A DNA stretch of 64,000 nt, taken from assembly GCA_964560085.1 (NCBI GenBank), contig CAZLKF010000002.1, forward strand, positions 28,240-92,239, in the 5' to 3' direction. Origin of the DNA: an uncultured Muribaculaceae bacterium. GTDB lineage: Bacteria > Bacillota_I > Bacilli_A > RF39 > UBA660. The notes beneath the pieces are model-generated. The model was not told where the DNA came from. It saw nothing but the letters and a program-made list of their open reading frames with translations, and ran no database searches. Below, in pieces: positions 1-17,039 of this stretch; within the stretch, counting starts at the first letter, position 1, and the number at the start of each line of letters is the position of its first letter. The position numbers and the translations under genes were made by a program.

Positions 1-49
1 AATATCCTCAACCTTTTTAGTTGCTTTTTCTTGTTTTAATGTAGCAGGT

Positions 50-409
50 TTATTTTCCAATGATTTTTTTGCAATTTCAACTAATGCTGTGAAAGCTGTT
101 GGATTATCAATTGCTAATTCGCTTAACATTTTGCGATTAAACTCAACACCTGCTTTTGCTAAACCATTAATAAATTTAGAATAACTAATTTCATTTTGAC
201 GGCAAGCTGCATTGATTCTTGTAATCCATAATTTACGGAAATCTCTTTTCTTTTGCTTTCTATCTCTATAAGCATATTTTCCTGAATGCATTACTTGTTC
301 AGCAGCAGTTTTATAAAGTCTATGTTTACTACCAAAGTAACCTTTAGCTTGATCAAGTACTTTTTTGCGACGGGCACGATGAATTGTGCCACCTTTTACT
401 CTTGTCATT
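50..409 (-). CDS. rplT: 50S ribosomal protein L20
   Basis: Minus-strand ORF absent from the ORF track. It starts ATG ACA AGA GTA AAA GGT GG (MTRVKGG) behind AGGGAGGGAAG, ends at TAA 50-52, and is about 119 aa. Confidence 0.85.
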
Positions 410-421
410 TTACTTCCCTCC

Positions 422-616
422 CTATTTGTTTAAAACGTTCTTTAATCTGCTCATATCAGATTTGCTCATATTTGAAGCAGATCTTGTCTTACGATTAAAT
501 GCAGCGTTCTTCTTTCCTGAATTATGTCTTGAACCAGGCATACCGATTTTTACAGTTCCACCTGGACGAACATTTGCAACTTTTGCTGTTCCCTTATGTG
601 TTTTAATTTTTGGCAT
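422..616 (-). CDS. rpmI: 50S ribosomal protein L35
   Basis: 64 aa basic protein beginning MPKIKTHKG, a typical L35 N-terminus, sitting between infC and rplT. Confidence 0.85.
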
Positions 617-627
617 ATATATTCCTC

Positions 628-1158
628 CTATTTTTCTTTTTTGGGTGCTAAAATCATTGTCATGTATCTACCATCTAATGATGGTCTTAATTCGATATCT
701 GAAAATTCAGATAAAGCATTTGCAAAGCGAAGTAAAACTTCTCGTCCCAATTCTGGGTGAGCCATTTCACGGCCTTTAAATTTGATTGATGCCTTAATCT
801 TATGTCCTTTTATTAAATATTTGCTAGAATTTGTTACCCTTGTATTAAAATCATGGACATCAATTGTAACTGACAAACGATATTCTTTCATTTCAAGATT
901 AGTTTCGCGTTGTTTTTTGAAATTCTCTTTTTGTCTTTTCTTGCTTTCATATTTAAATTTGTTATAATCCATTATTTTACATACTGGTGGATTAGCTGTT
1001 GGACTGATTAAGACTAAATCAAAGCCAGCATAGGTTGATAAAGTTAAGGCATCCTTGATATTTTTGACACCTAATTGTTCACCATTTGGACCTATGACCA
1101 TTACTTCTCTTGCGTGGATTTGTTCATTAATGTACAAATCTCTTTCTTTACTAGCGAT
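628..1158 (-). CDS. infC: translation initiation factor IF-3
   Basis: The ...INEQIHAREVMVIGPNGEQLGV... core matches the IF3 family. The ORF-track N-terminus (to 1242) is an artefact. The likely start is an in-frame ATC at 1156-1158, 7 nt after GGAGGTG; IF3 genes classically use AUU/AUC-type starts. Confidence 0.8.
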   Translation of the reverse strand: MASKERDLYINEQIHAREVMVIGPNGEQLGVKNIKDALTLSTYAGFDLVLISPTANPPVCKIMDYNKFKYESKKRQKENFKKQRETNLEMKEYRLSVTIDVHDFNTRVTNSSKYLIKGHKIKASIKFKGREMAHPELGREVLLRFANALSEFSDIELRPSLDGRYMTMILAPKKEK

Positions 1159-1295
1159 AAATTGACACCTCCAAATAAAAAGTGAATGCGAGACGCATCC
1201 ACTATAAAAACCAAATAATACTTCTATCGGCTTTAAACCCAAAGACTTAAGTCAATCGGGTGAGAAGTGGATACTTCTTCTTTCCTTTTTAATAC
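1159..1295 (-). ncRNA. L20-type ribosomal leader with intrinsic attenuator upstream of infC
   Basis: About 135 nt 5' UTR. It has a 9 bp hairpin (GUGGAUGCG ucu CGCAUUCAC, plus coords 1182-1202) followed by UUUUUAUUU just before the infC RBS, an architecture like the Bacillus infC-rpmI-rplT L20 autoregulatory leader. Confidence 0.45.
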
Positions 1296-1301
1296 ATATG
1301 T

Positions 1302-1330
1302 ATTATAAGCAATATTATGTTTCTTGTCAA
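1302..1330 (-). promoter_or_regulatory. sigma-A promoter for the infC-rpmI-rplT operon
   Basis: Minus strand reads TTGACA, a 17 nt spacer, then TATAAT. That is a perfect consensus (-35 at 1325-1330, -10 at 1302-1307). Confidence 0.55.
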
Positions 1331-1399
1331 CCTTTTATTTAAATAATTGCAGAATTTCTATTATTCTTGTATAATAATTTTATTGAAGGAGGCTTAGAA

Positions 1400-1762
1400 A
1401 TGGATTGCTTATTTTGCAAAATTATTAATGGTGAAATTCCAGCATATAAAATATATGAAGATGATATCGTTTTTGCTTTTTTGGACGTTAATCCTCATGG
1501 AAACGGTCATACATTAATAGTACCTAAAAAGCACTATGACGATTGCTTAGAAATTGATAACGATTTATTAATTCATATGTTTAGTGTAGGCAAAAAAATT
1601 CACAAAACTTTAGAAAATAAACTTCATTGTGATGGTATTACATATCTTCATAATTATGGTAATGTTCAAGCTATTAAGCATTATCACTTACATTTAATTC
1701 CTCGTTATGAAAAAGAAGAAAAACTTGCAATTGAAGAAGTATATCAATTGTTAAATAATTAG
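1400..1762 (+). CDS. HIT family (histidine triad) nucleotide hydrolase
   Basis: HIT motif HYHLHLIP near the C-terminus. Start ATG 1400 (MDCLFCKII) follows GAAGGAGG; the ORF-track start 1367 lacks an RBS. Confidence 0.8.
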   Translation: MDCLFCKIINGEIPAYKIYEDDIVFAFLDVNPHGNGHTLIVPKKHYDDCLEIDNDLLIHMFSVGKKIHKTLENKLHCDGITYLHNYGNVQAIKHYHLHLIPRYEKEEKLAIEEVYQLLNN

Positions 1763-1774
1763 ATTGGAGTTTAT

Positions 1775-2302
1775 ATGGAATTTAATTTGGTTGCTACCAT
1801 TAGCATAATAATTGGGTTAATAGCTTGTTTTTTTGGATTCAGTTTGCGAAAAATAGTTGTTGTTATTGCCTGGATTTTAATGGGATACACTATTTCCAAA
1901 GGAATTTTAATTAACTATGTAGATGAAAAAGAATTATTAGAAGGAATGTCAATTATAATTGGTCTAATTTTAGGTGTTGTCAGTCATGAATTAGAATTAA
2001 TTAGTATTTTTGTTGCTGCAGGCTTTTTATGTGGAAACTTTGCTTATCAAAATTTAACATTAAATTCACCTGTAAACATAATAATTGCCGTTATTGTTGG
2101 AATTATTGCTGGCGCACTTTCAATAAAGTTAGTTAAACCAATTTTGATTATCGCTACAGCAATTGCTGGTGGTGGAGCTATCTCTTCAGGACTGGCTACA
2201 ATGTTTAAAGGAATACCTAATTATGGTATATTAATAATTGAAATTGTATTTATTACTCTTGGTATTTTATTTCAATTTAAGGGTAATAAAGGAGAAAATT
2301 AA
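1775..2302 (+). CDS. small integral membrane protein with three internal repeats (sIIIGLI.G)
   Basis: 175 aa, strongly hydrophobic, four or more predicted TM helices. It is likely co-transcribed with the HIT gene. Confidence 0.5.
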   Translation: MEFNLVATISIIIGLIACFFGFSLRKIVVVIAWILMGYTISKGILINYVDEKELLEGMSIIIGLILGVVSHELELISIFVAAGFLCGNFAYQNLTLNSPVNIIIAVIVGIIAGALSIKLVKPILIIATAIAGGGAISSGLATMFKGIPNYGILIIEIVFITLGILFQFKGNKGEN

Positions 2303-2329
2303 AACTCTCTTTCGAGAGCTTTTTTATTA

Positions 2330-3832
2330 CTATTTTTTAATTAATGATTTTCCAGTCATCTCAACTGGTTTTTCTATATCCATAAGTTCTAAAATTGTTG
2401 GGGCAATATCTGATAAGGCCCCTGTATTTAATAATTGAGCTTTGCTATTAAAAATAATTAAAGGAACTAAGTTTGTTGTATGTGCTGTCAAAATATTATT
2501 ATCATCATCCAACATCTCTTCGCAATTGCCATGATCAGCAGTTACAATCATTGCTCCGTTTAATTCTTTAACTTTTGTAATTATTTTCCCTAAGCATTCA
2601 TCCATTGCTTCAATTGCTTTTATAGCTGCATCATATACACCAGTATGTCCGACCATATCACCATTAGCAAAATTTAAGATCACTAAATCAAAATCATTTA
2701 AATTTTCTAACACTTTGTCAGTAACTTCATAAACACTCATTTCAGGTTTTAAATCATATGTTGTTACTTTGGGTGATGGCACTAAAATTCTTTTGCAGCC
2801 TTCTAAATCTTTATCCAATCCACCATCAAAGAAATAAGTTACATGTGCATATTTTTCGGTTTCAGCAATTCGTAATTGCTTAAACCCTAGTTTACTAACA
2901 TATTCACCTAAAGTATTATCTAAAGTTGCAAGTTTGAAAGCATTAGTTGTAATCACATCATCGCTCACTTTCATCATCGTAACCAATTTAATATTGTTTA
3001 ACCTCTTTGCAGGAAATTCATTAAAAGATGGATTGGTGATGCTGTAAAATAGTTCTCTTAAGCGATCAGGTCGATAATTAAAGACAATTAAGCCATCATT
3101 ATCATCTATTGTCCCACTATTATCTAAAACTGTTGGCACAATAAATTCATCTGTCACATTATTTGCATAATTATTGTCAATTACTTCTTTATATGAATTT
3201 GCATGAACTCCAAAACCATTTACAATTGCGTCATAAGCAACTTTTATTCTTTCCCAACGATTATCACGATCCATTGCATAAAAACGACCAGAAATAGTTG
3301 CAATGGTTCCAATTTTTGTTTCAAGTATTTTGGCATTCAATTGTTCAAAAAATTGCATAGAAGAATGAGGTAATGTATCTCTACCATCTGTAAAAAGATG
3401 ATAATACACATCTTTTACTTCTTCTTTTTTACACAATTCAATAATTGCTAATAAGTGATTAATAGTTGAATGAATCCCACCATCACTTAAGAGACCAAAA
3501 ATATGCAATTTTGAATTGTTGATTTTAACATGATTTATTACATTCAATAATTGTTCATTTTGAAAAAATTCACCATTCTTTATTTTGGCATTAATTAATT
3601 CTAATGGTTGATATACTACTCTACCTGCACCAATATTTAAATGACCAACTTCTGAATTTCCCATTTGACCAGCTGGTAAGCCTACTGGTTCACCGCTTGC
3701 AGTTAAAGTTGTATGAGGATAATTATTCCATATATAATTAAAATTAGGTTTATTTGCATTAGCAAAAGCATTCCCTTTCACTTTTTCGCTTAAGCCAACT
3801 CCATCTAAAATTGTTAATACTACTGGTTTCAT
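2330..3832 (-). CDS. gpmI: 2,3-bisphosphoglycerate-independent phosphoglycerate mutase
   Basis: 500 aa carrying the iPGM signatures (MKPVVL.ILDG.G, NSEVGHLNIGAGR, ADHGN). Confidence 0.9.
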   Translation of the reverse strand: MKPVVLTILDGVGLSEKVKGNAFANANKPNFNYIWNNYPHTTLTASGEPVGLPAGQMGNSEVGHLNIGAGRVVYQPLELINAKIKNGEFFQNEQLLNVINHVKINNSKLHIFGLLSDGGIHSTINHLLAIIELCKKEEVKDVYYHLFTDGRDTLPHSSMQFFEQLNAKILETKIGTIATISGRFYAMDRDNRWERIKVAYDAIVNGFGVHANSYKEVIDNNYANNVTDEFIVPTVLDNSGTIDDNDGLIVFNYRPDRLRELFYSITNPSFNEFPAKRLNNIKLVTMMKVSDDVITTNAFKLATLDNTLGEYVSKLGFKQLRIAETEKYAHVTYFFDGGLDKDLEGCKRILVPSPKVTTYDLKPEMSVYEVTDKVLENLNDFDLVILNFANGDMVGHTGVYDAAIKAIEAMDECLGKIITKVKELNGAMIVTADHGNCEEMLDDDNNILTAHTTNLVPLIIFNSKAQLLNTGALSDIAPTILELMDIEKPVEMTGKSLIKK

Positions 3833-3836
3833 AAAC

Positions 3837-4706
3837 TCATCTTCCTTCTATTTTTAAACCAAGTCTTTTCACATCATCAGGAATATTCCTTGTTACAGTT
3901 AAACCATTTTTCAAAATACCAAAATTAAACTTATGATAACTGCGAGCTTCGCCATCTAAATTAGCTGAAATAGCATTTGGTATTATAGCTGTGAAATCTA
4001 AATTAGTAATCATTTCTTTCAAGATTTCTGGTTCTGCTTCATGTTGACCTTTTAATACTTTTAATAATAATTTTAGTAATTTTAATCTTGTTACTTCATT
4101 CAATTGATATGCATCTAAAAGGCCATCATTAATTATAGCATTTGGAGCTATTTTAATGCCATTACCATAGTAGCGTCCATTACAAACTGCTAATAGAGTT
4201 ATTTTTTCAAGTGAATAACCTTTTTCAATAATTTGAAAATTTTGCTCTTTTAAGAATTCTCTAATGATTGCTCGTGGATATGGTAAAAATTTAGCAAAAT
4301 GGCGATTTTTTTCAAGAGTTTCAATTACATTAGCATCAAAACCAACTGATGCAATATTTAAGAAATATTCCTGATTCATTATTCCAACATCTATGGTTGC
4401 TGTATCTTCAATTTTACTTTCTTTCAATGTCTTGTAAAAATCATTACCACTTCCAACCGGAATAACTCCCAATATAGCCTTTGATCCAATAATTCCGTTT
4501 GCCACATTATTAAGTGTTCCATCACCACCGACAGCATAAATAATCATCGGTTCTTCTTTATGACTTTCAACCATACTTATTCTAGTAGTTTCCATTGTTG
4601 ACCCCGGAACTAATATTTTTCTATTATCTTTCTTTTTTAAACCGGATAAAACTTTCAAAGATTTCCCATTTCCAGCATAAGGATTTATTATAAATACTTC
4701 TTTCAT
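3837..4706 (-). CDS. lipid kinase, YegS/BmrU/DagK family
   Basis: DAG-kinase catalytic-domain motifs (IINP.AG.GK, AVGGDGTLN), 289 aa. Confidence 0.75.
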   Translation of the reverse strand: MKEVFIINPYAGNGKSLKVLSGLKKKDNRKILVPGSTMETTRISMVESHKEEPMIIYAVGGDGTLNNVANGIIGSKAILGVIPVGSGNDFYKTLKESKIEDTATIDVGIMNQEYFLNIASVGFDANVIETLEKNRHFAKFLPYPRAIIREFLKEQNFQIIEKGYSLEKITLLAVCNGRYYGNGIKIAPNAIINDGLLDAYQLNEVTRLKLLKLLLKVLKGQHEAEPEILKEMITNLDFTAIIPNAISANLDGEARSYHKFNFGILKNGLTVTRNIPDDVKRLGLKIEGR

Positions 4707-4772
4707 ATTATCCCCCTAGTTAATTTTAACATAAAAGATATATTTTTAAAATAAAAAGTTAAAACTATTGTT

Positions 4773-5540
4773 CTAACTTTTCACTTTATGAAATTCTAAT
4801 CTCAACTTATCAGCAATGGTAACAATGAATTCGGAATTAGTAGGTTTAGCTTTGTCTATATCAACACTATGACCAAATATTTCTTCCATCAGATTCCAGC
4901 TTCCACGATTCCAGCTCACTTCAATTGCATGACGGATAGCTCTCTCAACACGTGAAACTGTAGTTGAAAATTTAGATGCTAATTCAGGGTATAATTCTTT
5001 AGTGATGCCACCAATTGTCTCAGGACGCTCATAAATAATACTTATACCTTCTCTAATATATTGATATCCTTTTATATGTGAAGGAATGCCTAATTCGTGT
5101 AAAATTTTAGTAATAGACATATGTAAATTATCGCGCTTAAAATCAATGTTTTTTGTTTCTAAATTCTTCTTTGTAACATCTTGAATTCTTCTTTCTAAAT
5201 CGTCTAAATCAAATGGTTTTAAAATAAAATAATTCACTCCAAATTCTGATACTTGTCTTATAACTTCACTAGCATTATAGCTAGTTGCAACTATGACATT
5301 TTTTTCAATGTTTCTTTTTTTCATTTCCTCTAAAACATAAATTCCGTCTTTTTTTGGCATTATTAAATCAAGAATTATTAAGTCAATTTTATCACCTAAT
5401 TCTTCAATTAATTTTATTCCTTCTTCACCATCATATGCCCAAGAAGTAATTGCTATGTCTTCACTAGTTGCGAAATACTCTTTAATCATTTCTATTAAAT
5501 TTACATTATCATCAATCATCAAAATTTTAGTTTTTTCCAT
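4773..5540 (-). CDS. spo0A: stage 0 sporulation response regulator Spo0A
   Basis: N-terminal receiver domain (D..D....K). The C-terminal Spo0A_C signature [19 protein letters not shown] is diagnostic for Spo0A. Confidence 0.85.
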
Positions 5541-5612
5541 ATATCCTCCTCATATTACGTTTTCATTATAAATTTTGTAAATGTCGAAATGTGTCATAAA
5601 AATAAAAAGAAG

Positions 5613-6335
5613 CTATTTTTCAACAACTTCTTTCATTTTTAATACTTTCTTATAGTCTAATGATGCTCCACCGATCAAAAAACCATCGACATTATTTATT
5701 TGATTTAATTTCTCAATATTTTTTTCACTGACACTACCTCCATATAGAATGCGAGGTTTTATTTCATAAAGATTTGCAACAATAGTAGAAATAAAATCGA
5801 TTGTTTGTTCAATATCCTCGTTTGTAGGAATTAAACCAGTTCCAATTGACCAAATTGGTTCATAAGCAATGATAACATTTTTTAAATCATCTTTGCTAAC
5901 ATCTTTTAAGCCATTAGTGATTTCTCTTTTTAGTACTCTAGTTGTTCGAAGCATTTCACGCTCTTCTTTGGTTTCACCTATACAAAGAATGACTTTAATT
6001 CCTTCTTTAAGAGAATTCTTAATTTTTCTATTTACTATCAAATCATCTTCGCCTTGTTCACTTCGACGTTCACTATGACCAATTATTGTATATGTACCAC
6101 CAAGACTTTTTAATTGCTGGCAAGAAATTTCTCCTGTATGTGCTCCATTATCATATTCTGATATGTTTTGCAATCCAATTGAATATTCATTGGATATAAA
6201 ATATGGCAAGAATATTGAAGGTGGACAGAAAACAAAAGATGCATTGTTTATTTTTCCTTTGATATTCTCAACATAATCACGAATATCTTTATAATTCAAA
6301 TTCATTTTAAAATTAAAAACCATTAATTTTTTCAT
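5613..6335 (-). CDS. tpiA: triosephosphate isomerase
   Basis: FNFKMN, IIGHSERR and AYEPIWSIGTG motifs. Confidence 0.9.
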   Translation of the reverse strand: MKKLMVFNFKMNLNYKDIRDYVENIKGKINNASFVFCPPSIFLPYFISNEYSIGLQNISEYDNGAHTGEISCQQLKSLGGTYTIIGHSERRSEQGEDDLIVNRKIKNSLKEGIKVILCIGETKEEREMLRTTRVLKREITNGLKDVSKDDLKNVIIAYEPIWSIGTGLIPTNEDIEQTIDFISTIVANLYEIKPRILYGGSVSEKNIEKLNQINNVDGFLIGGASLDYKKVLKMKEVVEK

Positions 6336-7798
6336 CGTCTACCCCTTTTTTGCTCTGTATCGTAGGTTGACTGATAACGTGCTAGGTAAACATTATATTG
6401 TTCAATTGCTCTATCACGTTTTTCAATAAGTGCTTGCACTTTTTTTACTAAACTATTTTTTATATTTGTTAATTCACAAAGTTTCGAATTATATTGATGA
6501 TTTATTTCAGCAACTATTCTTTTCACTTCAATTTCGTAATTGCTTCTATAATTTTTATGCTTAAATTCTTTTTCCTGTGCTTCACTTGTAGCAACAACAT
6601 ATTTTTTGTCCAATTCTTGATAAACTTGATCTTGTCTTAGGATATCATTCTTAATTTTTTCATATTCTTGATTTAAATCATTATGTGATATCAAAAAATT
6701 ATATTTTTCTTGTAAAACCTCGGCATATGTTTTATTAGTTTCTGGATAGTTTGAATAGTATAATTCTCTGTTTGCCCCGCTTTGAACAAATTGCATTTCC
6801 TTGTTATAAAGGGCAACAAAACTATTATAATATTCCAAAAATGCCTGTTGCTTTTGCATTATCAATGGCGTTAAAGTGTTAAAACGATTTTTTAATTCTG
6901 CAAAAATGGCATCAATATTTTGACAAGAGTGTAGATAATCGGCATATAGTTTTCTTTCTCTTTCATTATAAACTTTTTGGACATTATTAGGAAATAACTC
7001 TGTTTCCCATTGTTGATTACTTTTATTAATTTGAGCAGCGTTCTTTTCAATTTCAAAATTAATTTTAGCAATTTTCGTTTTAAAAATTGCTATTTTCTTT
7101 AGGTAAAAATTTTTAATATTTATAAAATCTTGTTCATTGCTAGGTATTTTTTTAAAGACAGCATTCCAACGACTTCTTATCAATTCCCCAAAGCCATATT
7201 GAATTTCTTCTTCAAAATCATCTTCTGCATGATAATGATATTGTCTTTCTTCTGTTTGAGTTTGTTCATAATTTGGCTTAGAATTATATGTCGATTGTCT
7301 ATAATTCGGTCTTGAACCATATGATGATTGTTGTTGATAATAACTTCGTTGTTCTGTATATTGCTGCCTTTCATTATTTTGGTAGTCATTATTATTTGTT
7401 GAACTGTTATTTTGTGCACCTGTAAATTGGCTTTTAAATGCTTCAGTTACATTCGTTTGTTTTGCCTTATTCAAATCAGATGCTAAATTTTGATAGATAC
7501 TATTTATTGCAGCAGTAAATTCTTCAATTTGTTTTTTTAAATTCTCTGATTGTAAAGTATCATACTTATCAGGGTGAATAAAAGTCATTCCTGTTTTATA
7601 TAAAGATTTGAAATTGTAAGTTACAAGATTTAAATTTGTTGCTTTATATTGCGCAATTTTCTCTTTTAAATCAGCCAATTTCTTTAAATCAGCAGCAATC
7701 GTTAATAAATTATTGTAAGTAACAAAATCGGATATTTGTTCTAATAAAAGCATAAATTTTTGAGCATCTTCTTCTAATTTGTAACTTAATTCTGACAT
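6332..7798 (-). CDS. J-domain-like (HPD motif) coiled-coil protein with a Q/N/Y-rich low-complexity tract
   Basis: 488 aa. KSLYKTGMTFIHPDKYD...ENLKKQIEEFTAAINSIY resembles J-domain helices II-III with an HPD loop. Residues around 130-195 are N/Q/Y/S-rich; the rest is predicted coiled coil. It has its own promoter. Confidence 0.5.
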   Translation of the reverse strand: MSELSYKLEEDAQKFMLLLEQISDFVTYNNLLTIAADLKKLADLKEKIAQYKATNLNLVTYNFKSLYKTGMTFIHPDKYDTLQSENLKKQIEEFTAAINSIYQNLASDLNKAKQTNVTEAFKSQFTGAQNNSSTNNNDYQNNERQQYTEQRSYYQQQSSYGSRPNYRQSTYNSKPNYEQTQTEERQYHYHAEDDFEEEIQYGFGELIRSRWNAVFKKIPSNEQDFINIKNFYLKKIAIFKTKIAKINFEIEKNAAQINKSNQQWETELFPNNVQKVYNERERKLYADYLHSCQNIDAIFAELKNRFNTLTPLIMQKQQAFLEYYNSFVALYNKEMQFVQSGANRELYYSNYPETNKTYAEVLQEKYNFLISHNDLNQEYEKIKNDILRQDQVYQELDKKYVVATSEAQEKEFKHKNYRSNYEIEVKRIVAEINHQYNSKLCELTNIKNSLVKKVQALIEKRDRAIEQYNVYLARYQSTYDTEQKRGRR

Positions 7799-7819
7799 AT
7801 ACTCACCTACTCTAATAAG

Positions 7820-7848
7820 ATTCTACCATATATAAGATTTTTTTTCAA
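7820..7848 (-). promoter_or_regulatory. promoter of the J-domain-like gene
   Basis: Minus strand reads TTGAAA, a 17 nt spacer, then TAGAAT, about 25 nt upstream of the AGGTGAG RBS. Confidence 0.4.
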
Positions 7849-7850
7849 TA

Positions 7851-7874
7851 AAAAAGAAGGTTTATTTACCTTCT
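7851..7874 (-). terminator. intrinsic terminator ending the ribosomal alpha operon after rplQ
   Basis: GAAGGU aaauaa ACCUUC followed by UUUUUU; the rplQ stop codon lies inside the stem. Confidence 0.5.
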
Positions 7875-8209
7875 ACAATTTCTAAAATAACCATTAAAGC
7901 GTCATCGCCACGGCGTTCATCTAATTTTAAGATGCGTGTATAGCCTCCATTACGATCACTATATCTAACACTTAAGTCATCAAATACTTTTTTCACAGCT
8001 TCATTATCATTTTCTAAGAAAGCTAGTGCGTTTCTACGAGCAACTAATGTGCCTTTTTTACCATAACTAATCATTTTATCAAAGCAATTTCTTACTTCTT
8101 TAGCACGAGGTTCGGTAGTTTCGATTCTCTCATTCATGATTAAGCTTTTAGTTAAATTAGCTAGCATACTACGACGATGCTTATTAGTTCTACCTAATTT
8201 TCTATACAT
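7862..8209 (-). CDS. rplQ: 50S ribosomal protein L17
   Basis: MYRKLGRT...NERIETTE, the L17 family N-terminus. Confidence 0.9.
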   Translation of the reverse strand: MYRKLGRTNKHRRSMLANLTKSLIMNERIETTEPRAKEVRNCFDKMISYGKKGTLVARRNALAFLENDNEAVKKVFDDLSVRYSDRNGGYTRILKLDERRGDDALMVILEIVEGK

Positions 8210-8220
8210 GAGTTTTCCTC

Positions 8221-9171
8221 CTAATCTTCATCGCGGAATTTAAGCCCCATGTCTTTAATTTTGTCAATGACTTCTTTTAAAGACTTCTTACCTAAATTAC
8301 GAATCTTCATCATTTCTAATTCAGATTTTTCTGTTAAATCACCTAATGTGGCTATTCCTGCTCTTTTTAAGCAATTATAAGCGCGAACTGAGAAATCTAG
8401 ATCATCAATTGATGTTTCTAATTTTTTCTGCTTGCTATCTTCTTGCTTAGCATTCATAATCCCTGTCATATCAGCAATTTCACTAATATTAGTAATTATA
8501 CTTAAATGCTCCATTAAGATTTTTGATCCTAAGGCCATTGCATCTTCAGGACGCATAGAACCATTAGTATAAACATTCATAATCAATTTATCATAATTAG
8601 CATCTTGACCAACACGAGCATTTTCAACTTCATAGTTGATTCTAACAATTGGTGAAAACAAAGCATCAATTGGAATATATCCGATTTTATTATTGTCGGC
8701 ATATTCTGTATTTTCGCCTGCTGGAACATATCCACGGCCATTAGCAATTACTATTTCCATACTTAGCTTTCCACCTTTTGCTAATGTTGCAATAACTTGA
8801 TCTTTATTAACTATCTCTATATCAGAATCACATTCAATGTCAGCAGCTGTAACAACACGTTCTTCTGCAACATTAATATAAACCGTTTTGGCTTCTTCTG
8901 AATGATTTTTTACAACAACATTTTTAAGATTTAAAACTATTGTTGTAACATCTTCAACTATTCCTTCAATTGTTTGGAATTCGTGCATAACACCATCGAT
9001 TTTAATGGCGACGATTGCACTTCCCGGCATGCTTGAAAGCATTACTCTTCTTAAAGCATTACCTAAGGTAATTCCGAACCCTCTTTCTAAAGGTTCAAGT
9101 TCAAATTTTCCATAATTACTATTTTCTACATATTCAGTTATTTTATATGTAGGTTTTTCAAAATTTAACAT
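8221..9171 (-). CDS. rpoA: DNA-directed RNA polymerase alpha subunit
   Basis: FEKP...ERGFGITLGNALRRVLLSS motif. Start ATG 9171 (MLNFEK) follows GGGAGGA; the ORF-track extension to 9231 overlaps rpsK and lacks an RBS. Confidence 0.9.
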   Translation of the reverse strand: MLNFEKPTYKITEYVENSNYGKFELEPLERGFGITLGNALRRVMLSSMPGSAIVAIKIDGVMHEFQTIEGIVEDVTTIVLNLKNVVVKNHSEEAKTVYINVAEERVVTAADIECDSDIEIVNKDQVIATLAKGGKLSMEIVIANGRGYVPAGENTEYADNNKIGYIPIDALFSPIVRINYEVENARVGQDANYDKLIMNVYTNGSMRPEDAMALGSKILMEHLSIITNISEIADMTGIMNAKQEDSKQKKLETSIDDLDFSVRAYNCLKRAGIATLGDLTEKSELEMMKIRNLGKKSLKEVIDKIKDMGLKFRDED

Positions 9172-9196
9172 GTTTCCATCCTCCCTTTTTTTACTA

Positions 9197-9580
9197 TTAG
9201 CCACGTGGACGTTTTGGTGGACGACATCCATTGTGTGGTATAGGTGTTACATCAGAGATGGCAGTTATTTCAAGACCTGCAGTTTGTAGTGAACGAATTG
9301 CTGTTTCACGACCAGATCCTAAGCCTTTTGCATAAACTTCAACTTTACGCATCCCCATATCATATGCTGTTTTGCCAGCTGCTTCAGCAGCCATGCCAGC
9401 AGCAAATGGAGTAGACTTTTTACTTCCTTTAAATCCTAAAGTACCGGCTGAAGCCCAGCTTATTGCATTACCTTCATCATCACAAATAGTAACTATCGTG
9501 TTGTTGAAAGTTGAATGAATGTATGCTTGACCTTGTGGTACATTCTTTTTAACTTTACGTTTTCTTGCTTTATAAGCCAT
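9197..9580 (-). CDS. rpsK: 30S ribosomal protein S11
   Basis: [20 protein letters not shown] and the ...RPPKRPR C-terminus. Confidence 0.9.
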
Positions 9581-9604
9581 TTATATAACCTCCTTTAAAT
9601 TAGA

Positions 9605-9970
9605 TTATTTCTTCTTATTTGCAACTACTTTGCCTTTACCTTTACGTGTTCTAGCATTTCTGTTAGTTCTTTGACCACGAACTGGTAAATTTTTCTTATG
9701 ACGAGTTCCTTCATATGAGTTAATTTCCATTTTTGTTTTAATGTTCATATTAACTTCACGTCTTAATTCGCCTTCGGTTTGATATTTGTTTACTTCATCA
9801 CGAATACGTGTTATTTCATCAGTTGTTAATTCTTCTGCCTTTTTGTTAGCATCTACGTTTGCAGCAGTTAATATTGTATTTGATAATTGTCTGCCAATTC
9901 CGTAAATATAAGTTAGAGCAATTTCAACTCTCTTATTATTTGGTATATCTACACCTTTAATACGTGCCAT
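9605..9970 (-). CDS. rpsM: 30S ribosomal protein S13
   Basis: [10 protein letters not shown]...IYGIG motif. Confidence 0.9.
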
Positions 9971-9987
9971 AAAACACCTCCTATTAT

Positions 9988-10101
9988 TTAACCTTGTTTT
10001 TGTTTATGCTTTGGATTTTCGCATATAACATATACTTTTCCTTTACGTCTTACTATCTTACATTTAGGACAGATAGGTTTTACTGATGGTTTAATTTTCA
10101 T
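9988..10101 (-). CDS. rpmJ: 50S ribosomal protein L36
   Basis: Absent from the ORF track. Minus-strand translation is [37 protein letters not shown], 37 aa with a zinc ribbon. Confidence 0.85.
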
Positions 10102-10113
10102 CTTTAATCCCTC

Positions 10114-10329
10114 CTACTTTCTATAGGTTATGCGCCCACGTGTTAAATCATATAGCGAAATCGCTACTGTTACTGTATCACCTGGTGAAATACGAATGTT
10201 ATTTACTCGCATTTTACCAGAAACCTGGGCTATTACAGTATGTTTATTTTCTAATTCTATTCTAAAGTCTCCTCTAGGTAAAACATCTATTACTTTTCCT
10301 TCAACTTCAATTACATCATCATGCGCCAT
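10114..10329 (-). CDS. infA: translation initiation factor IF-1
   Basis: 71 aa, DVIEVEGKV...[11 protein letters not shown], the S1-like IF1. Confidence 0.9.
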
Positions 10330-10333
10330 TTTA

Positions 10334-11080
10334 TCACCTCTTCGTTAATATTGTATATCCTTCTTTTTCTACCACTATAGTATGTTCAAAATGAGCAGAC
10401 GCTTCACCATCAGCAGTGATTATTGTCCAATCATCATCGAGAATATATATATTGGGGGTTCCTAAATTTAACATCGGTTCTATTGCAATTGTCATACCTG
10501 CTTTTAAAATAGGTCCTTTGCCTGGAAGTCCATAATTGGGAACGTCAGGATTTTCGTGAACTGTTTCACCAATTCCATGACCAACCAACTCTTTTACAAC
10601 TCCAAGTCTATATTTTTTAGCATAAGTTTCAATAGCATTGCCGATATCACTGATATGAATTCCTTCTTTGACAACAGCTAAACCTTCATATAAAGATTTT
10701 TCAGTATGCTCAAGTAAGTACTTCTTTTTTTCACTAATCTGTCCAACAGGATAAGTCCAAGCTGAATCACCATGATAGCCCTTATAACAAGCACCTATAT
10801 CAATTGAAATGATATCACCGTTTTTTAACTTACGGTTTGAGGGAATTCCATGAACAACTTCTTCATTAATTGAAGTACAAATTGTTGCTGGATATCCTTC
10901 ATATCCCTTAAATGATGGAGTCGCATTCTTGCTCAAAATAAAGTCATAAGCTAATTTATCAAGTTCCAAAGTAGAGATACCTGGTTTAACAAATTTCTGC
11001 AAGTAATTGTGAGTTTCCCCAACAATTGATCCAGCTTTTTTCATTAATTCGATTTCTCGATCAGACTTTATCGTTATCAT
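10334..11080 (-). CDS. map: type I methionine aminopeptidase
   Basis: 248 aa with the MetAP metal-ligand context (D..D...H...E..E); canonical position after infA. Confidence 0.85.
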
Positions 11081-11081
11081 T

Positions 11082-11720
11082 TTAATCCTGTTCTTTCAAT
11101 ATATGTTCAATATCAGCAAATGTATCTTCTTTTAATTCATGTGATTTTACAATATAAAGCACTTGTTTTTTACGATAATATTCAAGAATATCTTTTACAT
11201 TGTTAAGGTAGGTATTAAATCTAACCTTAAATGATTCTTCATTATCATCGCTACGACCAGTTAATTCTATATTACAAACATCACATAAACGATCTTTTTT
11301 TGGAGCCATTTCTTTAGAATAAATATTATAAATTTTTCCACACTTACTACAAGTTAAGCGACCAAGTGTTCTTTCTAAAGCGACAATTTCTTCAACTTCA
11401 AAGTTAATTACAATATAATTAGCAAAGAAATTATCTAAAACATGTGCTTGATTTAACGTTCTTGGAAACCCATCTAAAACGACTGGAACATTTCCTAATT
11501 CTTTTAGTTTATTTTGTAATAATTGTGCAGTTGTATTGTCATCGATTAAGATTCCTTTTGAAATATCATCATGAATTTTACGATTAAATTCCGTACTATC
11601 ATCCAAATCTCTAAACAATTGTCCCATTGATATGTGTTTATATCCATATCTGGAAACTAACAATTCACATTGTGTTCCTTTGCCAGCTGCTGGAGCACCA
11701 TATAAAATTATGTTTTTCAT
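11082..11720 (-). CDS. adk: adenylate kinase
   Basis: P-loop GAPAAGKGTQ and a zinc-lid CSKCG...CDVC. Confidence 0.9.
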   Translation of the reverse strand: MKNIILYGAPAAGKGTQCELLVSRYGYKHISMGQLFRDLDDSTEFNRKIHDDISKGILIDDNTTAQLLQNKLKELGNVPVVLDGFPRTLNQAHVLDNFFANYIVINFEVEEIVALERTLGRLTCSKCGKIYNIYSKEMAPKKDRLCDVCNIELTGRSDDNEESFKVRFNTYLNNVKDILEYYRKKQVLYIVKSHELKEDTFADIEHILKEQD

Positions 11721-12974
11721 TTATCTTCTCCCCTTTGAATAATTTCTGCTCAACAATAAACTTTCTAATTGCTTGTATGTTTCTAAAGCAACACCAACAA
11801 CAATCAATAATCCAGTACCACCTAAGGCAATTGAATTATTTAAGCCAGTTACCCAAACAAATATTGTTGGTAAGGCCGCAATCGCTGCTAAGCACAAAGC
11901 TCCAACAAAAGTTATTCGATTAATAATTTTCTTTATATAAACTTCCGTTGCATCACCCGGACGAACTCCAGGAATATAACCACCATTCTTTTGTAAGTTT
12001 GAGGCCATATCTTTTGGTTTTAGTTGTGCATAAGTGTAAAAATATGAAAAACCAAAAATTAATACAATATATAATATAAAGCCAGTTACTGATGAGGTTG
12101 ATAACCATTTTTCAGTAAAAGTTGTTAATGAATCAACTTTTATAAATTGAGCTATGAATGCAGGCATTTGTAGTAAAGCTGATGCAAAAATTACAGGGAT
12201 TACGCCAGCTGAGTTTAAACGGAAAGGAATATAACTTTGTCTTCCGCCAACTGCAGTTGACTTATTTGCATATTGAATTGCAACTCTTCGTTCAGCTGTT
12301 TGTTCATAAACAACAGCCAAGACAATAATTACGTAAACAAGGACATAAGCAACAAACTTGGCAACACCCATTGCTGTACCACCAGTCATAAATGTCTGAT
12401 AAGCATTAGCAAATGTTGCTGGCAAAGTCATTACAATGCCGGCCATAATTATCATTGAAACGCCGTTTCCAATTCCTTTTTGAGTCATTTGGTCACCTAA
12501 CCATAATAACAAAGCTGTTCCAGCAGTCATAACTAAAGAAAAGTTCAAATATTCAGCAAATGTTCCACCTTCGATAATCGCGAATGAGAACATATATCCT
12601 TGAATAAATGCCATTAAGATACCAACATATCTTGTTATTTTATTTAGTTTTACTTGACCTGTGTGTCCTTCTTTTGCTAAATCAGCTAGATATGGAATAA
12701 TATCCATTTGTAATAACTGAATTATGAAAGATGCTGTAATGTATGGTGATACACCTAGAGCAAATATTGAAAATTGTTCTAAAGCGCCTCCAGCCATGAC
12801 ATTTAATAATTGAAAATATTTTAATGTACTTAAACCTAATTGTGCTTGATTAATACCGGGAATAACAATAGTTGTTCCAAGTTTAAAGATAAATAAGGCA
12901 AATAAAGTAAAATATATTTTCTTTCTTATATCTTTGTTTTTTGGATTAAATATTTGCTTCATAGTTGCAAACAT
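11721..12974 (-). CDS. secY: preprotein translocase subunit SecY
   Basis: 417 aa polytopic membrane protein between rplO and adk. Confidence 0.9.
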   Translation of the reverse strand: MFATMKQIFNPKNKDIRKKIYFTLFALFIFKLGTTIVIPGINQAQLGLSTLKYFQLLNVMAGGALEQFSIFALGVSPYITASFIIQLLQMDIIPYLADLAKEGHTGQVKLNKITRYVGILMAFIQGYMFSFAIIEGGTFAEYLNFSLVMTAGTALLLWLGDQMTQKGIGNGVSMIIMAGIVMTLPATFANAYQTFMTGGTAMGVAKFVAYVLVYVIIVLAVVYEQTAERRVAIQYANKSTAVGGRQSYIPFRLNSAGVIPVIFASALLQMPAFIAQFIKVDSLTTFTEKWLSTSSVTGFILYIVLIFGFSYFYTYAQLKPKDMASNLQKNGGYIPGVRPGDATEVYIKKIINRITFVGALCLAAIAALPTIFVWVTGLNNSIALGGTGLLIVVGVALETYKQLESLLLSRNYSKGRR

Positions 12975-12975
12975 T

Positions 12976-13419
12976 TTAGATCACCTCTGCTTTTCCACCT
13001 ATTTTTTCAATCTCTCTTAAGGCAGCATCAGAGAATTTATTCGCTTTTACAGTAATCTTTTTAGTTAATTTTCCATTACCTAAAACTTTTACGCCATCAA
13101 GTTGTTTTTTTAATAGTCCCATTTCTTTTAATAATTCTGGTGTTACTACAGCACCATCATCAAACTTGTCTAAATCACTTAAATTAATAACTGCATAAGT
13201 TGTTTTGAATAATGCATTTTTGAAACCACGTTTTGGTAAACGACGGAATAATGGTAATTGGCCACCTTCAAATCCTGGGCGAACACCACCACCACTTCTT
13301 GCATTTTGACCCTTATGGCCTTTGCCAGAAGTTTTTCCTAAACCGGAACCAGTTCCACGGCCAACTCTTTTACGAGTTTGCTTAGCACCCTCTGGTGCAT
13401 ACATACAATTTAACTTCAT
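12976..13419 (-). CDS. rplO: 50S ribosomal protein L15
   Basis: Gly-rich basic N-terminus ([19 protein letters not shown]). Confidence 0.9.
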
Positions 13420-13922
13420 TATAACTCCTCAACTTTCTTACCGCGAAGTTCTGCAACTTCTTCAGTAGTTTTTTGAGCTCTTAATGCTTTCAATGTTGCT
13501 TGAGCCATATTAATTTTTGTACTTGAACCAAGTGATTTTGATAAGATATCTTTTACGCCGGCTAATTCTAATACCGCGCGAACAGGACCACCAGCTTTAA
13601 CACCAGTACCAGCAGCTGCTGGCTTTAACATAACTTTACTAGCACCTTCAACACCATATGCTTCATGAGGAATTGTTCTATTATCAACTAATGAAACTTT
13701 AACGATGTCTTTAGTTGCAGCCGCACTTGCCTTTTTAATAGCATCTGGAACTTCATTAGCTTTGCCAGTACCAATACCAACTAAGCCATTACGATTTCCA
13801 ACTGCAACAGTTGCTGAAAAACGGAAATGACGACCACCTTTTGTTACTTTTGTAACTCTGCCAATATTGATTATTTCTTCATCATATTGTTTTTGACGTG
13901 GTTCTCTTCTAGATTTTTCCAT
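13419..13922 (-). CDS. rpsE: 30S ribosomal protein S5
   Basis: The S5 dsRBD-like motif. Its stop overlaps the rplO start (ATGA), so no rpmD lies between them. Confidence 0.9.
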
Positions 13923-13935
13923 TGTTTTCCTCCTT

Positions 13936-14298
13936 TTAGAATTCTAATCCATTTTCACGTGCAGCTTCTGCTAGAGCTTCTACACGTCCATGATAAAGGT
14001 ATCCACCTCTATCGAAAACTACTTTAGTTATTTTTGCTTCTTTTGCTCTTTTTGCAAGAAGAACGCCAACTTGAATAGCAGCTTCAGTATTACTACCATT
14101 CTTAAGTTTTAATTCTTTATCGATAGAAGAAGCACTAACTAACGTAACCGCATTTTCATCATCTATAATTTGTGCAAAAATATTAGCGTTTGATCTAAAA
14201 ACATTTAAACGTGGAATACTTTTTGTTCCAACAACATTTTCTCTAACACGCTCATGTCTTGCTTTTCGCATATCATTACGAGATTCTTTTTTAATCAT
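13936..14298 (-). CDS. rplR: 50S ribosomal protein L18
   Basis: 120 aa; the ...[12 protein letters not shown]... motif. Confidence 0.9.
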
Positions 14299-14321
14299 GA
14301 GTATTACTCTCCTTTACTTAA

Positions 14322-14852
14322 TTAAGCCGCTTTTTTACCGACTTTACGGCGAACAATTTCGCCACTATAACGAATTCCTTTACCTTTATAAGGTTCTGGT
14401 TTTCTAATCTTTCTGATGTCAGCAGCATATTCCCCAACAAGACATTTATCAATACCTCTTATAAATAATTCAGTATTACTTGGAGATTCAAGTTTAATGC
14501 CTTCAGGAATATCCACTTCAACTGGATGTGAAAATCCAGCAGTTATAACTAATTTGTTACCTTTTAAAGTAAAACGATATCCTACACCTACAGCTTCAAG
14601 CTTTTTTTCAAATCCTTCAGTTACACCAATAATAGCGTTATTAAGATTTGCATTAACTGTTCCATGTAAATTTTTAATTTCATCATTTGCTCTTGTAACC
14701 ATTACTTCTGTACCATTAACACTTACCTGAATTCCAGTAGGAACATTGACATTAAGTTCGCCTTTTTGTCCTTTTACAATAACATTGTTTTCATTAACAG
14801 TTAATGTAACTGAAGCAGGTATAGTTAAAATTTTATTACCTATACGACTCAT
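14322..14852 (-). CDS. rplF: 50S ribosomal protein L6
   Basis: MSRIGNK..IP..V family start, 176 aa. Confidence 0.9.
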   Translation of the reverse strand: MSRIGNKILTIPASVTLTVNENNVIVKGQKGELNVNVPTGIQVSVNGTEVMVTRANDEIKNLHGTVNANLNNAIIGVTEGFEKKLEAVGVGYRFTLKGNKLVITAGFSHPVEVDIPEGIKLESPSNTELFIRGIDKCLVGEYAADIRKIRKPEPYKGKGIRYSGEIVRRKVGKKAA

Positions 14853-14866
14853 AATATCTCTCCATT

Positions 14867-15262
14867 CTACCAGATGTAAGCTAGAAGTTCGCCACCAACG
14901 TTTTCAGTTCTTGCATTCTTATCAGTCATAACACCTTTTGGTGTAGAAAGAATTGCAATACCTAAACCATTTAATACTTTTGGTACTTCATCAGCTTTTA
15001 CATAAACACGTAAGCCCGGTTTAGAAATTCTCTTTAAACCAGTTATAACACGTTCTCTTTTTTCAGTATATTTTAAGTTTAAAACAATAACATTTTGTAT
15101 ATTGTTTTTCTTAACCTTATAATCATTAATAAATCCTTCGTCCTTTAAAATACGAGCGATTTCTTCTTTTAATTTTGAAGCGGGTACTTCAACTTCTTTA
15201 TCGCGCATTTGATTTGCATTACGAACTCGCGTAAGCATATCTGCGATTGGGTCTGTTACCAT
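14867..15262 (-). CDS. rpsH: 30S ribosomal protein S8
   Basis: [16 protein letters not shown], the S8 signature. Confidence 0.9.
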
Positions 15263-15283
15263 ATATATCCTCCCTTCGTTATC

Positions 15284-15469
15284 CTACCAGCTAGATTTTT
15301 TCATTCCTGGTATTTGTCCTTTATAAGCTAATTCCCTAAAACAAATACGACAGATGCCATATTTACTAAGTACTGCATGTGGTCTTCCACAACGATTACA
15401 ACGAGTGTAAGCACGTGTCGAGAACTTAGGTTTACGGTTAGCTTTTATAATCATGCTTTTTTTAGCCAT
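15284..15469 (-). CDS. rpsN: 30S ribosomal protein S14, zinc-binding type Z
   Basis: 61 aa with C-x2-C...C-x2-C ([20 protein letters not shown]). Confidence 0.9.
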
Positions 15470-15488
15470 AATATCCTCCTAATTATAG

Positions 15489-16028
15489 TTATTTTTTAAA
15501 CGGCATCCCAAAGCCTTTTAATAAGTCATACGCTTCTTCATTAGATTTAGCAGTTGTTACAAATACTACATCCATGCCACGTACTTTAACTACGTTATCG
15601 TATTCAATTTCAGAAAAAATTAATTGTTCAGTTAATCCTAATGTATAGTTACCTCTGCCGTCAAATGCTTTATTAGAAATTCCTCTAAAGTCTCTTACAC
15701 GAGGTAGGGCAATACTAATTAACTTTTCTAAGAAGTTATACATTTTTTCGCCTCTTAGAGTTACCTTACATCCGATTGCTTGACCAGCTCTTAATTTAAA
15801 ACCAGCAATTGCTTTTTTTGCTTTAGTTGCTACTGGTTTTTGACCAGTGATTAATTCAAGTTCTTGCATAGCTGCTTCTAATAATTTTGAGTTAGTTGTT
15901 GCATCTCCTGTTCCAATATTAACAACGATTTTGTCTAACTTTGGAACATTCATAACAGATGTATATTTATATTTTTCTGTCATTGCAGGTACGATTTCTT
16001 TCATATATTTTTCTTTTAGGTGGTTCAT
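15489..16028 (-). CDS. rplE: 50S ribosomal protein L5
   Basis: MNHLKEKY...VPKL.KIVVN.G family start. Confidence 0.9.
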
Positions 16029-16045
16029 AAATACCCTCCTTCCAA

Positions 16046-16354
16046 TTAATCAAGGCTTTCATTAGAAGTGCGTGCAATTCTAACTTTTTTGCCCTTTTTA
16101 TCTACAGTATGTCCGATACGAGTAGGTTTCTTTGTTTTTGGATCCATTAACATTACATTTGAAGCATGAATAGGCGCTTCACGATCAACAATACTACCTT
16201 CTTTTTGACCATTTGGCTTTAAATGCTTTTTATGAATATTAATACCTTCAACAACTACTCTGTTTTCATCACGTAAAATTTTAGTTATTTTACCTTCTTT
16301 ACCTTTTGATGAACCAGCTATAACAACTACTCTATCTCCAGTTTTAAAGTTCAT
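16046..16354 (-). CDS. rplX: 50S ribosomal protein L24
   Basis: KOW motif ([14 protein letters not shown]). Confidence 0.9.
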
Positions 16355-16373
16355 GTTTTACCTCCTTTAAGGT

Positions 16374-16742: not shown

Positions 16743-16767
16743 ATATTAATCCTCCTATCGTTTACAA

Positions 16768-17028: not shown

Positions 17029-17039
17029 AAATACCTCCA

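Follow-up and report, generated by a model that had tools for sequence, protein, structure and literature searches.

A J-domain-like helix-HPD-helix hairpin in a fast-evolving coiled-coil protein encoded between rplQ and tpiA

At the tip of the helical bundle of a J domain (PF00226), an H-P-D loop connects a basic amphipathic helix to a second one; in the compact fold of ~70 residues, short helices I and IV pack on this hairpin of helices II and III. Zuotin, a eukaryotic ribosome-associated J protein, contains a basic region and a long helix besides its J-type module and a bundle of helices. In DnaJ, K26 and R22 touch DnaK, and replacing H33 or D35 abolishes activity (PMC8215388). A survey of ~280,000 J-domain proteins found an almost universal HPD, with HPE in ~1% (PMC10410713). 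The class C (type III) J proteins, which in bacteria include HscB and DjlA, are very heterogeneous, with frequent unannotated domains or disordered regions (PMC8215388, PMC10410713).

Here, we analysed gene X, which lies between rplQ and tpiA in the window, the whole 64-kb stretch of DNA under study (Table 1). Like the class C proteins, X runs from a J-like module through a low-complexity linker into a helical C-terminal domain; unlike class A/B DnaJ, it has neither a Gly/Phe region nor a beta-sandwich, and its C-terminal domain is all-helical. X also differs from J proteins in general, since Tyr, Gln, Asn and Ser abound in its linker rather than Gly and Phe (3 Gly and 2 Phe in 79 residues), its C-terminal domain matches none of the known client-binding or dimerisation domains, and its dependence on Hsp70 is putative. 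The AF2 model was confident for both the N- and the C-terminal domain.

Table 1. Features of gene X and its surroundings, in window coordinates.
Feature	Residues	Coordinates	Strand	Remarks
Gene X	1-488	6332..7798	(-)	488 aa, ATG start, stop codon within the coordinates; unnamed family, no Pfam domain
N-terminal domain	1-122	7433..7798	(-)	four-helix bundle: helices 2-28, 35-53, 63-74/76-79 and 85-115
J-domain-like helix-HPD-helix hairpin	58-115	7454..7627	(-)	hhalign against a J-domain profile
HPD codons	75-77	7568..7576	(-)	H in 16/16, P in 12/16 and D in 15/16 members
Disordered, polar, Tyr-rich linker	123-202	7193..7432	(-)	includes the Q/N/Y/S tract
C-terminal all-helical domain	203-480	6359..7192	(-)	opens with conserved FxKIPSxxxDY; P219 invariant
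Basic tail	481-488	6335..6358	(-)	...TEQKRGRR; K/R-rich tail in all members
Shine-Dalgarno-like AGGTGAG		7802..7808	(-)	3 nt before the ATG of X; read from sequence
Sigma-70-type promoter-like site		7820..7848	(-)	TTGAAA-17-TAGAAT, extended -10 TG
rplQ terminator-like hairpin		7845..7874	(-)	AGAAGGT-AAATAA-ACCTTCT and T-run; 5' arm overlaps the rplQ end
tpiA		5613..6335	(-)	coupled in translation with X; stop and start codons overlap as ATGA at 6332-6335

The first-pass annotation, made from the letters of the DNA, had reported a 488-residue reading frame at this place, and its coordinates and frame proved correct. The N-terminal Met lined up in 16/16 family members. A pseudogene or spurious ORF was rejected in view of the conserved length, the confident AF2 model and the conservation of the start codon, the Shine-Dalgarno site and the promoter; furthermore, the protein was found in identical copies in two sequencing runs and one NCBI record. 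A scan of the whole 64-kb window with Rfam detected no RNA element. The terminator and the promoter that had been noted upstream of X correspond to a hairpin with a T-run at 7874..7855 and a promoter-like site, and both are conserved in two loci whose X proteins share just 26-29% identity with X. The hairpin recurs in the related locus L014 and, through a compensatory change from GGT/ACC to GGC/GCC, in L006, while TTGAAA-17-TAGAAT had the best score among the promoter-like sites of the region, with a -35 TTGnnn and a TGnTAnAAT at the equivalent place in L006 and L014. The gene had also been described as insulated between its neighbours, which holds on the upstream but not on the downstream side: the TGA of X overlaps the ATG of tpiA, so X heads an operon. 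This overlap is again ATGA in L006 and L014, and by coordinates it measures 4 nt in L016 and 8 nt in L018. In the clade of the window, the sigma-A-type promoter and the translational coupling to tpiA point to vegetative, housekeeping-level expression.

An exhaustive HMMER search retrieved 15 relatives that aligned over the full length (E 2e-18 to 9e-4) and that together with X form the family alignment (n = 16). Word-indexed searches with the full protein and with the full-family alignment (best 8,000 candidates in each case), and with the N-domain alignment, gave almost no matches; in the first two, candidates were probably swamped by the low-complexity linker. Conserved 7-10-mers are absent from both the 16- and the 8-sequence family alignments. 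No relatives were found by two scans of genome contigs, a viral scan or a JGI metagenome scan, and phmmer against PDB sequences gave no match. Searches of NCBIfam, PADLOC and PHROGs returned scattered chance coiled-coil matches alone, which excludes a reading of X as a defence-system or phage protein. The hosts of the family are Firmicutes of 27-30% GC, which encode Spo0A at least in the rplQ-X-tpiA clade. Between loci, X is 25-29% identical, compared with 88-92% for RpoA and 61-66% for TpiA. The other clade, clade B, lies entirely in an unrelated PTAC/lemA/UDG neighbourhood; the two clades share no conserved neighbour, and Hsp70, grpE or dnaJ genes adjoin X in neither conserved context. X is a real, fast-evolving gene of a small unnamed family of low-GC Firmicutes.

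Residues 63-77 are the best-conserved 15-mer of X, and the HPD stands at its end, between helices 63-74 and 85-115. This HPD is unique among the ORFs of at least 100 aa in the 64-kb window, with a chance expectation of 0.011 per 488 aa, and the motif is retained between loci despite the low identity of the protein. With its invariant His and near-invariant Asp inside the most conserved segment of X, the tripeptide is not fortuitous. Five of the 16 members carry variants in which Pro or Asp is replaced (HAD, HSD twice, HDD and HPN), of types that are very rare among true J-domain proteins (PMC10410713). Seven positions before the His, Lys or Arg is found in 15/16 members, and 11 positions before it in 10/16; these positions are the equivalents of DnaJ K26 and R22. 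In addition, hydrophobic residues at positions -12, -9, -5, -4 and -1 follow the pattern of J-domain helix II, and hydrophobic and basic residues precede the His at the spacing of DnaJ residues 21-32. A metal-binding or catalytic role of the His and Asp was considered but rejected, as the N-terminal domain has no further invariant polar residue.

The first-pass annotation had pointed to a segment resembling a J domain, to be checked with the PF00226 HMM. PF00226 did not match X at E values up to 10 or any of the 16 members at E values up to 1, so that support from this HMM is absent for X and its 15 relatives. The same model gave scores of 22-106 bits for nine reference J domains used as a positive control, and recovered the divergent J domains of HscB, SV40 T antigen, auxilin and Pam18 at 22-32 bits. 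Pairwise comparison by hhalign with a profile of 14 J domains, whose reference alignment was typed by hand and validated by Pfam for 9/14 sequences, gave a probability of 88.4 (P 2.8e-6, 50 columns, score 37.2) with the HPDs aligned and the hairpin of X paired in register with J-domain helix II, HPD and helix III, while 32 reversed or shuffled controls scored at most 12.4. When the HPD was masked on both sides, the score was 18.1 (P 0.014) and the register was unchanged; the similarity outside the HPD is marginal. These alignments give modest support to a profile likeness that extends beyond the HPD to helix II, with its basic and amphipathic character, and to helix III. The J domains of auxilin/GAK (PDB 1NZ6, 2QWN/2QWO) are the closest known counterparts in this respect, and auxilin J domains were the sole functionally annotated family found both by HMM search of PDB sequences (E 0.6-1.5) and by Foldseek (2.9 A over 44 columns, at ranks 6, 12 and 49); these matches are weak and not significant, but in register.

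As in J domains, the hairpin of X sits at the tip of a helical bundle, but the setting differs: X lacks the compact J fold, its hairpin belongs to an up-and-down four-helix bundle of 115 residues in which two long N-terminal helices replace the short helices I and IV, and the equivalent of helix III has 31 residues. The term J-domain-like therefore stands as a statement of resemblance, which the conserved HPD and the in-register profile alignment bear out, and membership of the J-domain family is not supported.

The reading that we prefer, with a probability of about 0.4, is that X is a cytoplasmic two-domain scaffold of a lineage-restricted family whose J-like hairpin acts on DnaK. The most likely mechanism would be that the tip of the N-terminal bundle, with its basic helix, H-P-D loop and second helix, docks where the nucleotide-binding domain, the interdomain linker and the substrate-binding domain of ATP-bound DnaK (Hsp70) meet. 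There, contacts made by the His, the Asp and the basic residue conserved at position -7 would trigger ATP hydrolysis, and DnaK would thereby be loaded onto a partner of the antiparallel coiled-coil C-terminal domain (~280 aa) and the basic tail. The Tyr-rich linker would serve as a flexible spacer, placed like the G/F region of DnaJ. We infer that the order of J-like module, disordered aromatic-rich linker and helical C-terminal domain reflects the generic J-protein layout. It is possible, though less likely than not, that the family defines a new Hsp70 co-chaperone module, with a J-type hairpin mounted on a long four-helix bundle, invisible to the Pfam DnaJ model, and with a Tyr-rich disordered linker leading to a coiled-coil domain of a new kind that would serve for targeting. 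On this reading, the position of X at the end of the ribosomal alpha operon, long kept in one clade, and its coupling to tpiA would fit a bacterial equivalent of J proteins that are associated with ribosomes or metabolism. The likeness to Zuotin would be an analogy alone: one clade lies at the end of a ribosomal-protein operon, the context of clade B is not ribosomal, and no match between Zuotin and X was found in sequence or structure.

A competing explanation, which we regard as quite possible, is that X is a coiled-coil protein with a structural or scaffolding role that does not involve Hsp70. Its conserved H-x-D loop, at the tip of an ordinary four-helix bundle, would bind another partner, and the J likeness would be convergent or coincidental; the long antiparallel helices and the basic tail would anchor or arrange something at the membrane, nucleoid or ribosome, as proteins of the EzrA, DivIVA or GpsB type do. 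The coiled coil noted in the first-pass annotation is well predicted, with long helices at residues 222-267, 270-339, 391-419 and 421-479 (pLDDT 97-98) in a C-terminal domain of pLDDT 89-98 that dips at residues 331-360. Foldseek matched this domain to generic antiparallel coiled coils (best E 0.011), and its profile gave chance coiled-coil matches alone against PDB. The best Foldseek matches were the long antiparallel coiled coils of SMC/MukB arms, SH3BP5 and chemoreceptor cytoplasmic domains, and the helices of this domain, 46-70 residues long, likewise fold back on one another. However, these matches are non-significant (E at least 0.011, TM at most 0.2) and reflect generic coiled-coil likeness, and unlike SMC-type or chemoreceptor proteins X lacks an ATPase head (Pfam, NCBIfam), a HAMP or signalling module and a transmembrane segment. 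The lack of a transmembrane segment also speaks against an Hsp70-independent scaffold, as does the fact that no known cytoskeletal or division family was matched. Moreover, the in-register match to J helices II and III survives masking of the HPD, the two residues retained, His and Asp, are those essential in J domains, and no neighbour shared by both clades hints at a different partner.

The first-pass annotation had further seen a prion-like Q/N/Y-rich tract. On one reading, its formation of a condensate or amyloid would be the main function, with the folded domains as accessories; we consider this improbable. The linker is predicted to be disordered (AF2 pLDDT 31-44 at residues 124-202), and the depletion of hydrophobic residues is real: residues ~128-190 contain no A, V, I, L, M, F, W or C, a 60-aa stretch without hydrophobics is unique in the 64-kb window (next lowest 0.17), and 11 Tyr spaced 5-10 residues apart among Arg, Ser, Gln and Asn fit a 'sticker-spacer' pattern. 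What is conserved is a polar linker with few hydrophobics and 5-18% Tyr, present in 16/16 members. However, contrary to the earlier statement, charged residues are well represented in the tract, at 15-20% (9 E, 3 D, 5 R and 1 K in 79 aa). Nor are Q/N-rich linkers rare in the vicinity, since another protein of the window, at 58682..59680, exceeds X in Q/N count. The Michelitsch-Weissman criterion calls for at least 30 Q+N per 80 residues; X falls short with 27 in its best 80-aa window (residues 102-181), and the other members have 13-24. An approximate PAPA-like score for residues 120-200 was 0.00 against a cut-off of 0.05. Across the family, the tract ranges from 29 to 101 aa (29-45 aa in four members) and from 0 to 33% Q+N, its sequence is not conserved, and conservation along the protein is lowest in the linker (mean column score -0.18 versus 0.71 and 0.56 for the two domains). 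In addition, AT-rich codon bias at 27-30% GC favours N, Y, K and Q. The disorder and the hydrophobic depletion thus stood up while the Q+N content and the conservation did not, which leaves a weak prion-like label, the least robust part of the earlier view, and the Q/N-rich stretch is a variable flexible linker.

A link to sporulation had been offered as a guess, for which we find no support; a sporulation-stage factor tied to Spo0A is more improbable still. Only in some loci of one clade is spo0A close to X: it stands two genes downstream in the window, in L006 and in L018, it is not near L013 or L014, and clade B has the PTAC/lemA/UDG context. The sigma-A-like promoter with its extended -10 and the coupling to the glycolytic gene tpiA also argue against this guess, and inspection by eye of the 63 nt upstream showed no 0A-box-like TGNCGAA.

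If the N-terminal bundle activates DnaK, J function could reside in a fold that escapes the present domain models, and censuses of Hsp70 co-chaperones would undercount; the survey of ~280,000 J proteins, which was built from InterPro annotation (PMC10410713), would then undercount too. HAD, HSD, HDD and HPN would form a natural variant series for asking to what extent the triad is required. If DnaK is not activated, X would be a routine uncharacterised coiled-coil protein, and it would still be a clear case of a very fast-evolving orphan (25-29% identity) that stays in one place between housekeeping genes of high conservation (RpoA ~90% identical).

Searches of Pfam, NCBIfam and the PDB sequences with X, the 488-aa protein encoded between rplQ and tpiA, gave no matches, and a word-indexed search returned only X itself among the matches listed. 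An exhaustive phmmer search of 1.84 billion cluster representatives recovered 15 relatives (E 1.9e-18 to 9.4e-4) of 423-489 aa with 22-27% identity, most of them aligned over nearly the full length. The relatives are all unnamed, and Pfam recognises no domain in any of them. Metagenome assemblies were the source throughout; beyond these, the window's own protein has a single NCBI record. No relatives were found in the GTDB representative genomes, IMG/VR or JGI metagenomes that were scanned; GC content was 27-30% at every family locus. The X family is real but tiny, undescribed and lineage-restricted, and does not represent a new principle. In the 90% cluster of the member P0013, a 55-aa JGI fragment is labelled 'exodeoxyribonuclease VII small subunit'; this helical fragment has most likely been mis-annotated and offers no functional clue.

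The family comprises two sequence clades, which match two conserved gene neighbourhoods (types A and B in the table) with no neighbour gene in common. The X stop overlaps the tpiA start at every type A locus, three of which carry spo0A, usually a DAGK-type kinase gene, and gpmI downstream; Spo0A is encoded at the rplQ-X-tpiA loci of P0001, P0004 and P0020. When syntenic copies of X were compared (6332..7798 in the window, 6001-7467 in the related locus L006 and 1436-2749 in L014), identity between type A loci was merely 25-29%, against 88-92% for RpoA, 87-91% for RplQ, 83% for Spo0A, 76% for GpmI and 61-66% for TpiA. X is a positional orthologue that evolves unusually fast in a fixed housekeeping position. 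Two short predicted proteins, P0029 (675-bp ENA contig) and P0030 (615-bp ENA contig), open with the N-terminal 35-63 residues of a clade B member and continue with unrelated sequence, in P0030 a NUMOD1/I-HmuI-like homing-endonuclease module; they are either assembly chimeras or products of a mobile-element insertion into a clade B gene. In the window, spo0A (4773..5540) and a DAGK/YegS-type lipid kinase gene (3837..4706) lie between the glycolytic genes tpiA and gpmI (2330..6335, minus strand). L006 has the same order of tpiA, spo0A, kinase and gpmI, and at L018 spo0A and gpmI occur without the intervening kinase gene. The mechanical rpoA ORF (8221..9231, minus strand) encodes 336 aa and overlaps rpsK (9197..9580); because identical contigs were annotated with a 316-aa product, rpoA probably starts at an internal ATG at ~9171. 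Ribosomal-protein leaders are often present at clusters of the S10-spc-alpha and infC-rpmI-rplT types. Rfam gave no family at gathering score over the whole window (1..64000), despite the presence of both.

The X protein agrees with its first-pass annotation, and the promoter-like site that had been proposed for it was the top match of the region, with an extended -10 TG and with a hairpin and T-run at the end of rplQ. As the X TGA overlaps the tpiA ATG, X is insulated on its upstream, rplQ side only and is coupled to tpiA on the other, which halves the earlier claim of an insulated gene. The rplQ terminator hairpin was retained in the type A loci compared, with a compensatory change from GGT/ACC to GGC/GCC, and so were both promoter elements upstream of X (-35 TTGnnn, extended -10 TGnTAnAAT). 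This retention supports a real sigma-A-type promoter, which would drive an X-tpiA operon.

Features of gene X, parts of its protein and neighbourhoods of its family
Feature	Position	Strand	Details
X ORF	6332..7798	minus	488 aa; read from the window sequence
Promoter-like site	7848..7820	minus	TTGAAA-17-TAGAAT, extended -10 TG; best promoter-like match of region
Hairpin and T-run	7874..7855	minus	overlaps rplQ stop; read from sequence
X TGA/tpiA ATG overlap	6332-6335	minus	ATGA; read from sequence
N-terminal domain	residues 1-120		helices 2-28, 35-53, 63-74/76-79, 85-115 (AF2)
Disordered segment	residues 124-202		pLDDT 31-44 (AF2)
C-terminal all-helical domain	residues 203-480		helices up to 70 residues, pLDDT up to 98 (AF2)
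Type A neighbourhood			rpoA-rplQ-X-tpiA; P0001, P0004, P0006, P0003 cluster (via P0020), P0010
Type B neighbourhood			PBP1A, PTAC (opposite strand), X, lemA, UDG (opposite strand); P0002, P0011, P0013, P0014, P0012

The AF2 model of X, built from the 16-sequence alignment, had a mean pLDDT of 80.8 and consisted of three parts followed by a short basic tail after residue 480; the N-domain modelled by itself reached a pLDDT of 89.9 and a pTM of 0.80. Foldseek matched the C-domain only to generic antiparallel coiled coils, among them SMC and MukB arms, SH3BP5 and chemoreceptors (E at least 0.011, TM at most 0.2). Its profile gave chance coiled-coil matches only among PDB sequences, and PADLOC and PHROGs gave no consistent match. 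Only two landmarks stand out here: FxKIPSxxxDY, a conserved motif at the entry to the domain, and the tail rich in K/R. Only five columns of the family alignment were invariant (M1, L19, H75, P219 and Y475). The most conserved 15-residue window of the whole protein was 63-77, FKSLYKTGMTFIHPD, followed by 211-225, WNAVFKKIPSNEQDF, in the opening segment of the C-domain.

The HPD of X (residues 75-77) is unique among window ORFs of 100 aa or more (64 kb), with a composition expectation of 0.011 per 488 aa. Neither X nor any relative matched PF00226, although nine reference J domains were detected in the same run, including four very divergent ones: HscB and SV40 T antigen (27 bits each), auxilin (32) and Pam18 (22). 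Foldseek with the N-domain gave nothing significant (best E 0.22). In an hhalign comparison with a profile of 14 J domains, residues 58-115 of the N-domain profile paired with DnaJ 16-63, HPD opposite HPD (score 37.2, probability 88.4, P 2.8e-6). Scores were at most 12.4 when either profile was reversed or the J-domain columns were shuffled 30 times; masking HPD in both profiles left 18.1 (P 0.014) in an unchanged register. In the family motif, [YF]-[ND]-[FY]-x-x-[LI]-K-[RK]-x-[VIL]-A-x-[VIL]-[FI]-H-P-D, the hydrophobic positions -12, -9, -5, -4 and -1 are spaced as I21, A24, L28, A29 and Y32 of DnaJ, and the basic positions -11 and -7 as R22 and K26. R22 and K26 contact DnaK, and mutation of H33 or D35 abolished activity in every system tested (PMC8215388). 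The auxilin J domain was the sole functionally annotated family found both when PDB sequences were searched with an HMM (E 0.6-1.5, spanning helix II, HPD and helix III) and by Foldseek (ranks 6, 12 and 49), neither match being significant; auxilin 1nz6 could be superposed on the N-domain over 44 columns (2.9 A, 25% identity). In our reading, the N-domain lies outside PF00226 and lacks the compact J fold. It is a larger bundle whose tip bears a J-like helix-HPD-helix hairpin, and no other part of X is as strongly constrained.

The best-supported model, to which we give a probability of roughly 0.4, takes X for a divergent J-like co-chaperone. In this model, DnaK would be recruited and activated by the HPD hairpin, with the Tyr-rich linker serving as a spacer and the target or location set by the coiled-coil domain together with its basic tail. 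Only slightly less probable is the main rival, a coiled-coil scaffold that acts without Hsp70 and whose HxD loop has some other binding partner. The HPD-aligned profiles speak for the co-chaperone model, as does the retention of His in all 16 members and of Asp in 15; against it, no Hsp70, grpE or dnaJ gene is adjacent to X in type A or type B, and 5 of the 16 members carry HPD variants (HAD, HSD twice, HDD and HPN). Among ~280,000 J-domain proteins surveyed, HPD was nearly universal and HPE occurred in ~1% (PMC10410713). The sporulation role once guessed for X is highly improbable: nothing speaks for sporulation-specific control, and the promoter is of the sigma-A type.

That X is chiefly a prion-like or condensate protein, as its Q/N/Y-rich tract had suggested, seems unlikely. 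The tract is real and predicted to be disordered; residues ~128-190 contain no hydrophobic residue, and such a 60-aa stretch is unique to X among window ORFs (next lowest hydrophobic fraction 0.17). It is nevertheless conserved less than any other part of X, with a mean column score of -0.18 where the N-domain reaches 0.71 and the C-domain 0.56, and 15-20% of its residues are charged. The prion-like label is weak: the best 80-residue window holds 27 Q+N, under the classical threshold of 30, and an approximate PAPA score was 0.00 (cut-off 0.05). Linker length in the family varies from 29 to 101 aa, with 0-33% Q+N, 5-18% Tyr and 5-14% hydrophobic residues (24% in the shortest). Its polar, Tyr-rich character is conserved, together with an S-[FY]-[FK]-[YW] aromatic opening and an acidic/aromatic patch at the end. 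This fits a flexible spacer, placed where DnaJ-type proteins have their G/F region, and the linker may have weak 'sticker' properties. The window also encodes a 332-aa protein (58682..59680, minus strand) that starts with a CxxC...CxxC zinc ribbon and ends in a folded domain; it also has a Q/P/N-rich low-complexity tract and a single predicted transmembrane helix. Since its best 80 aa hold 31 Q+N, exceeding X, Q/N-rich linkers are unexceptional in this genome, contrary to the rarity first supposed.
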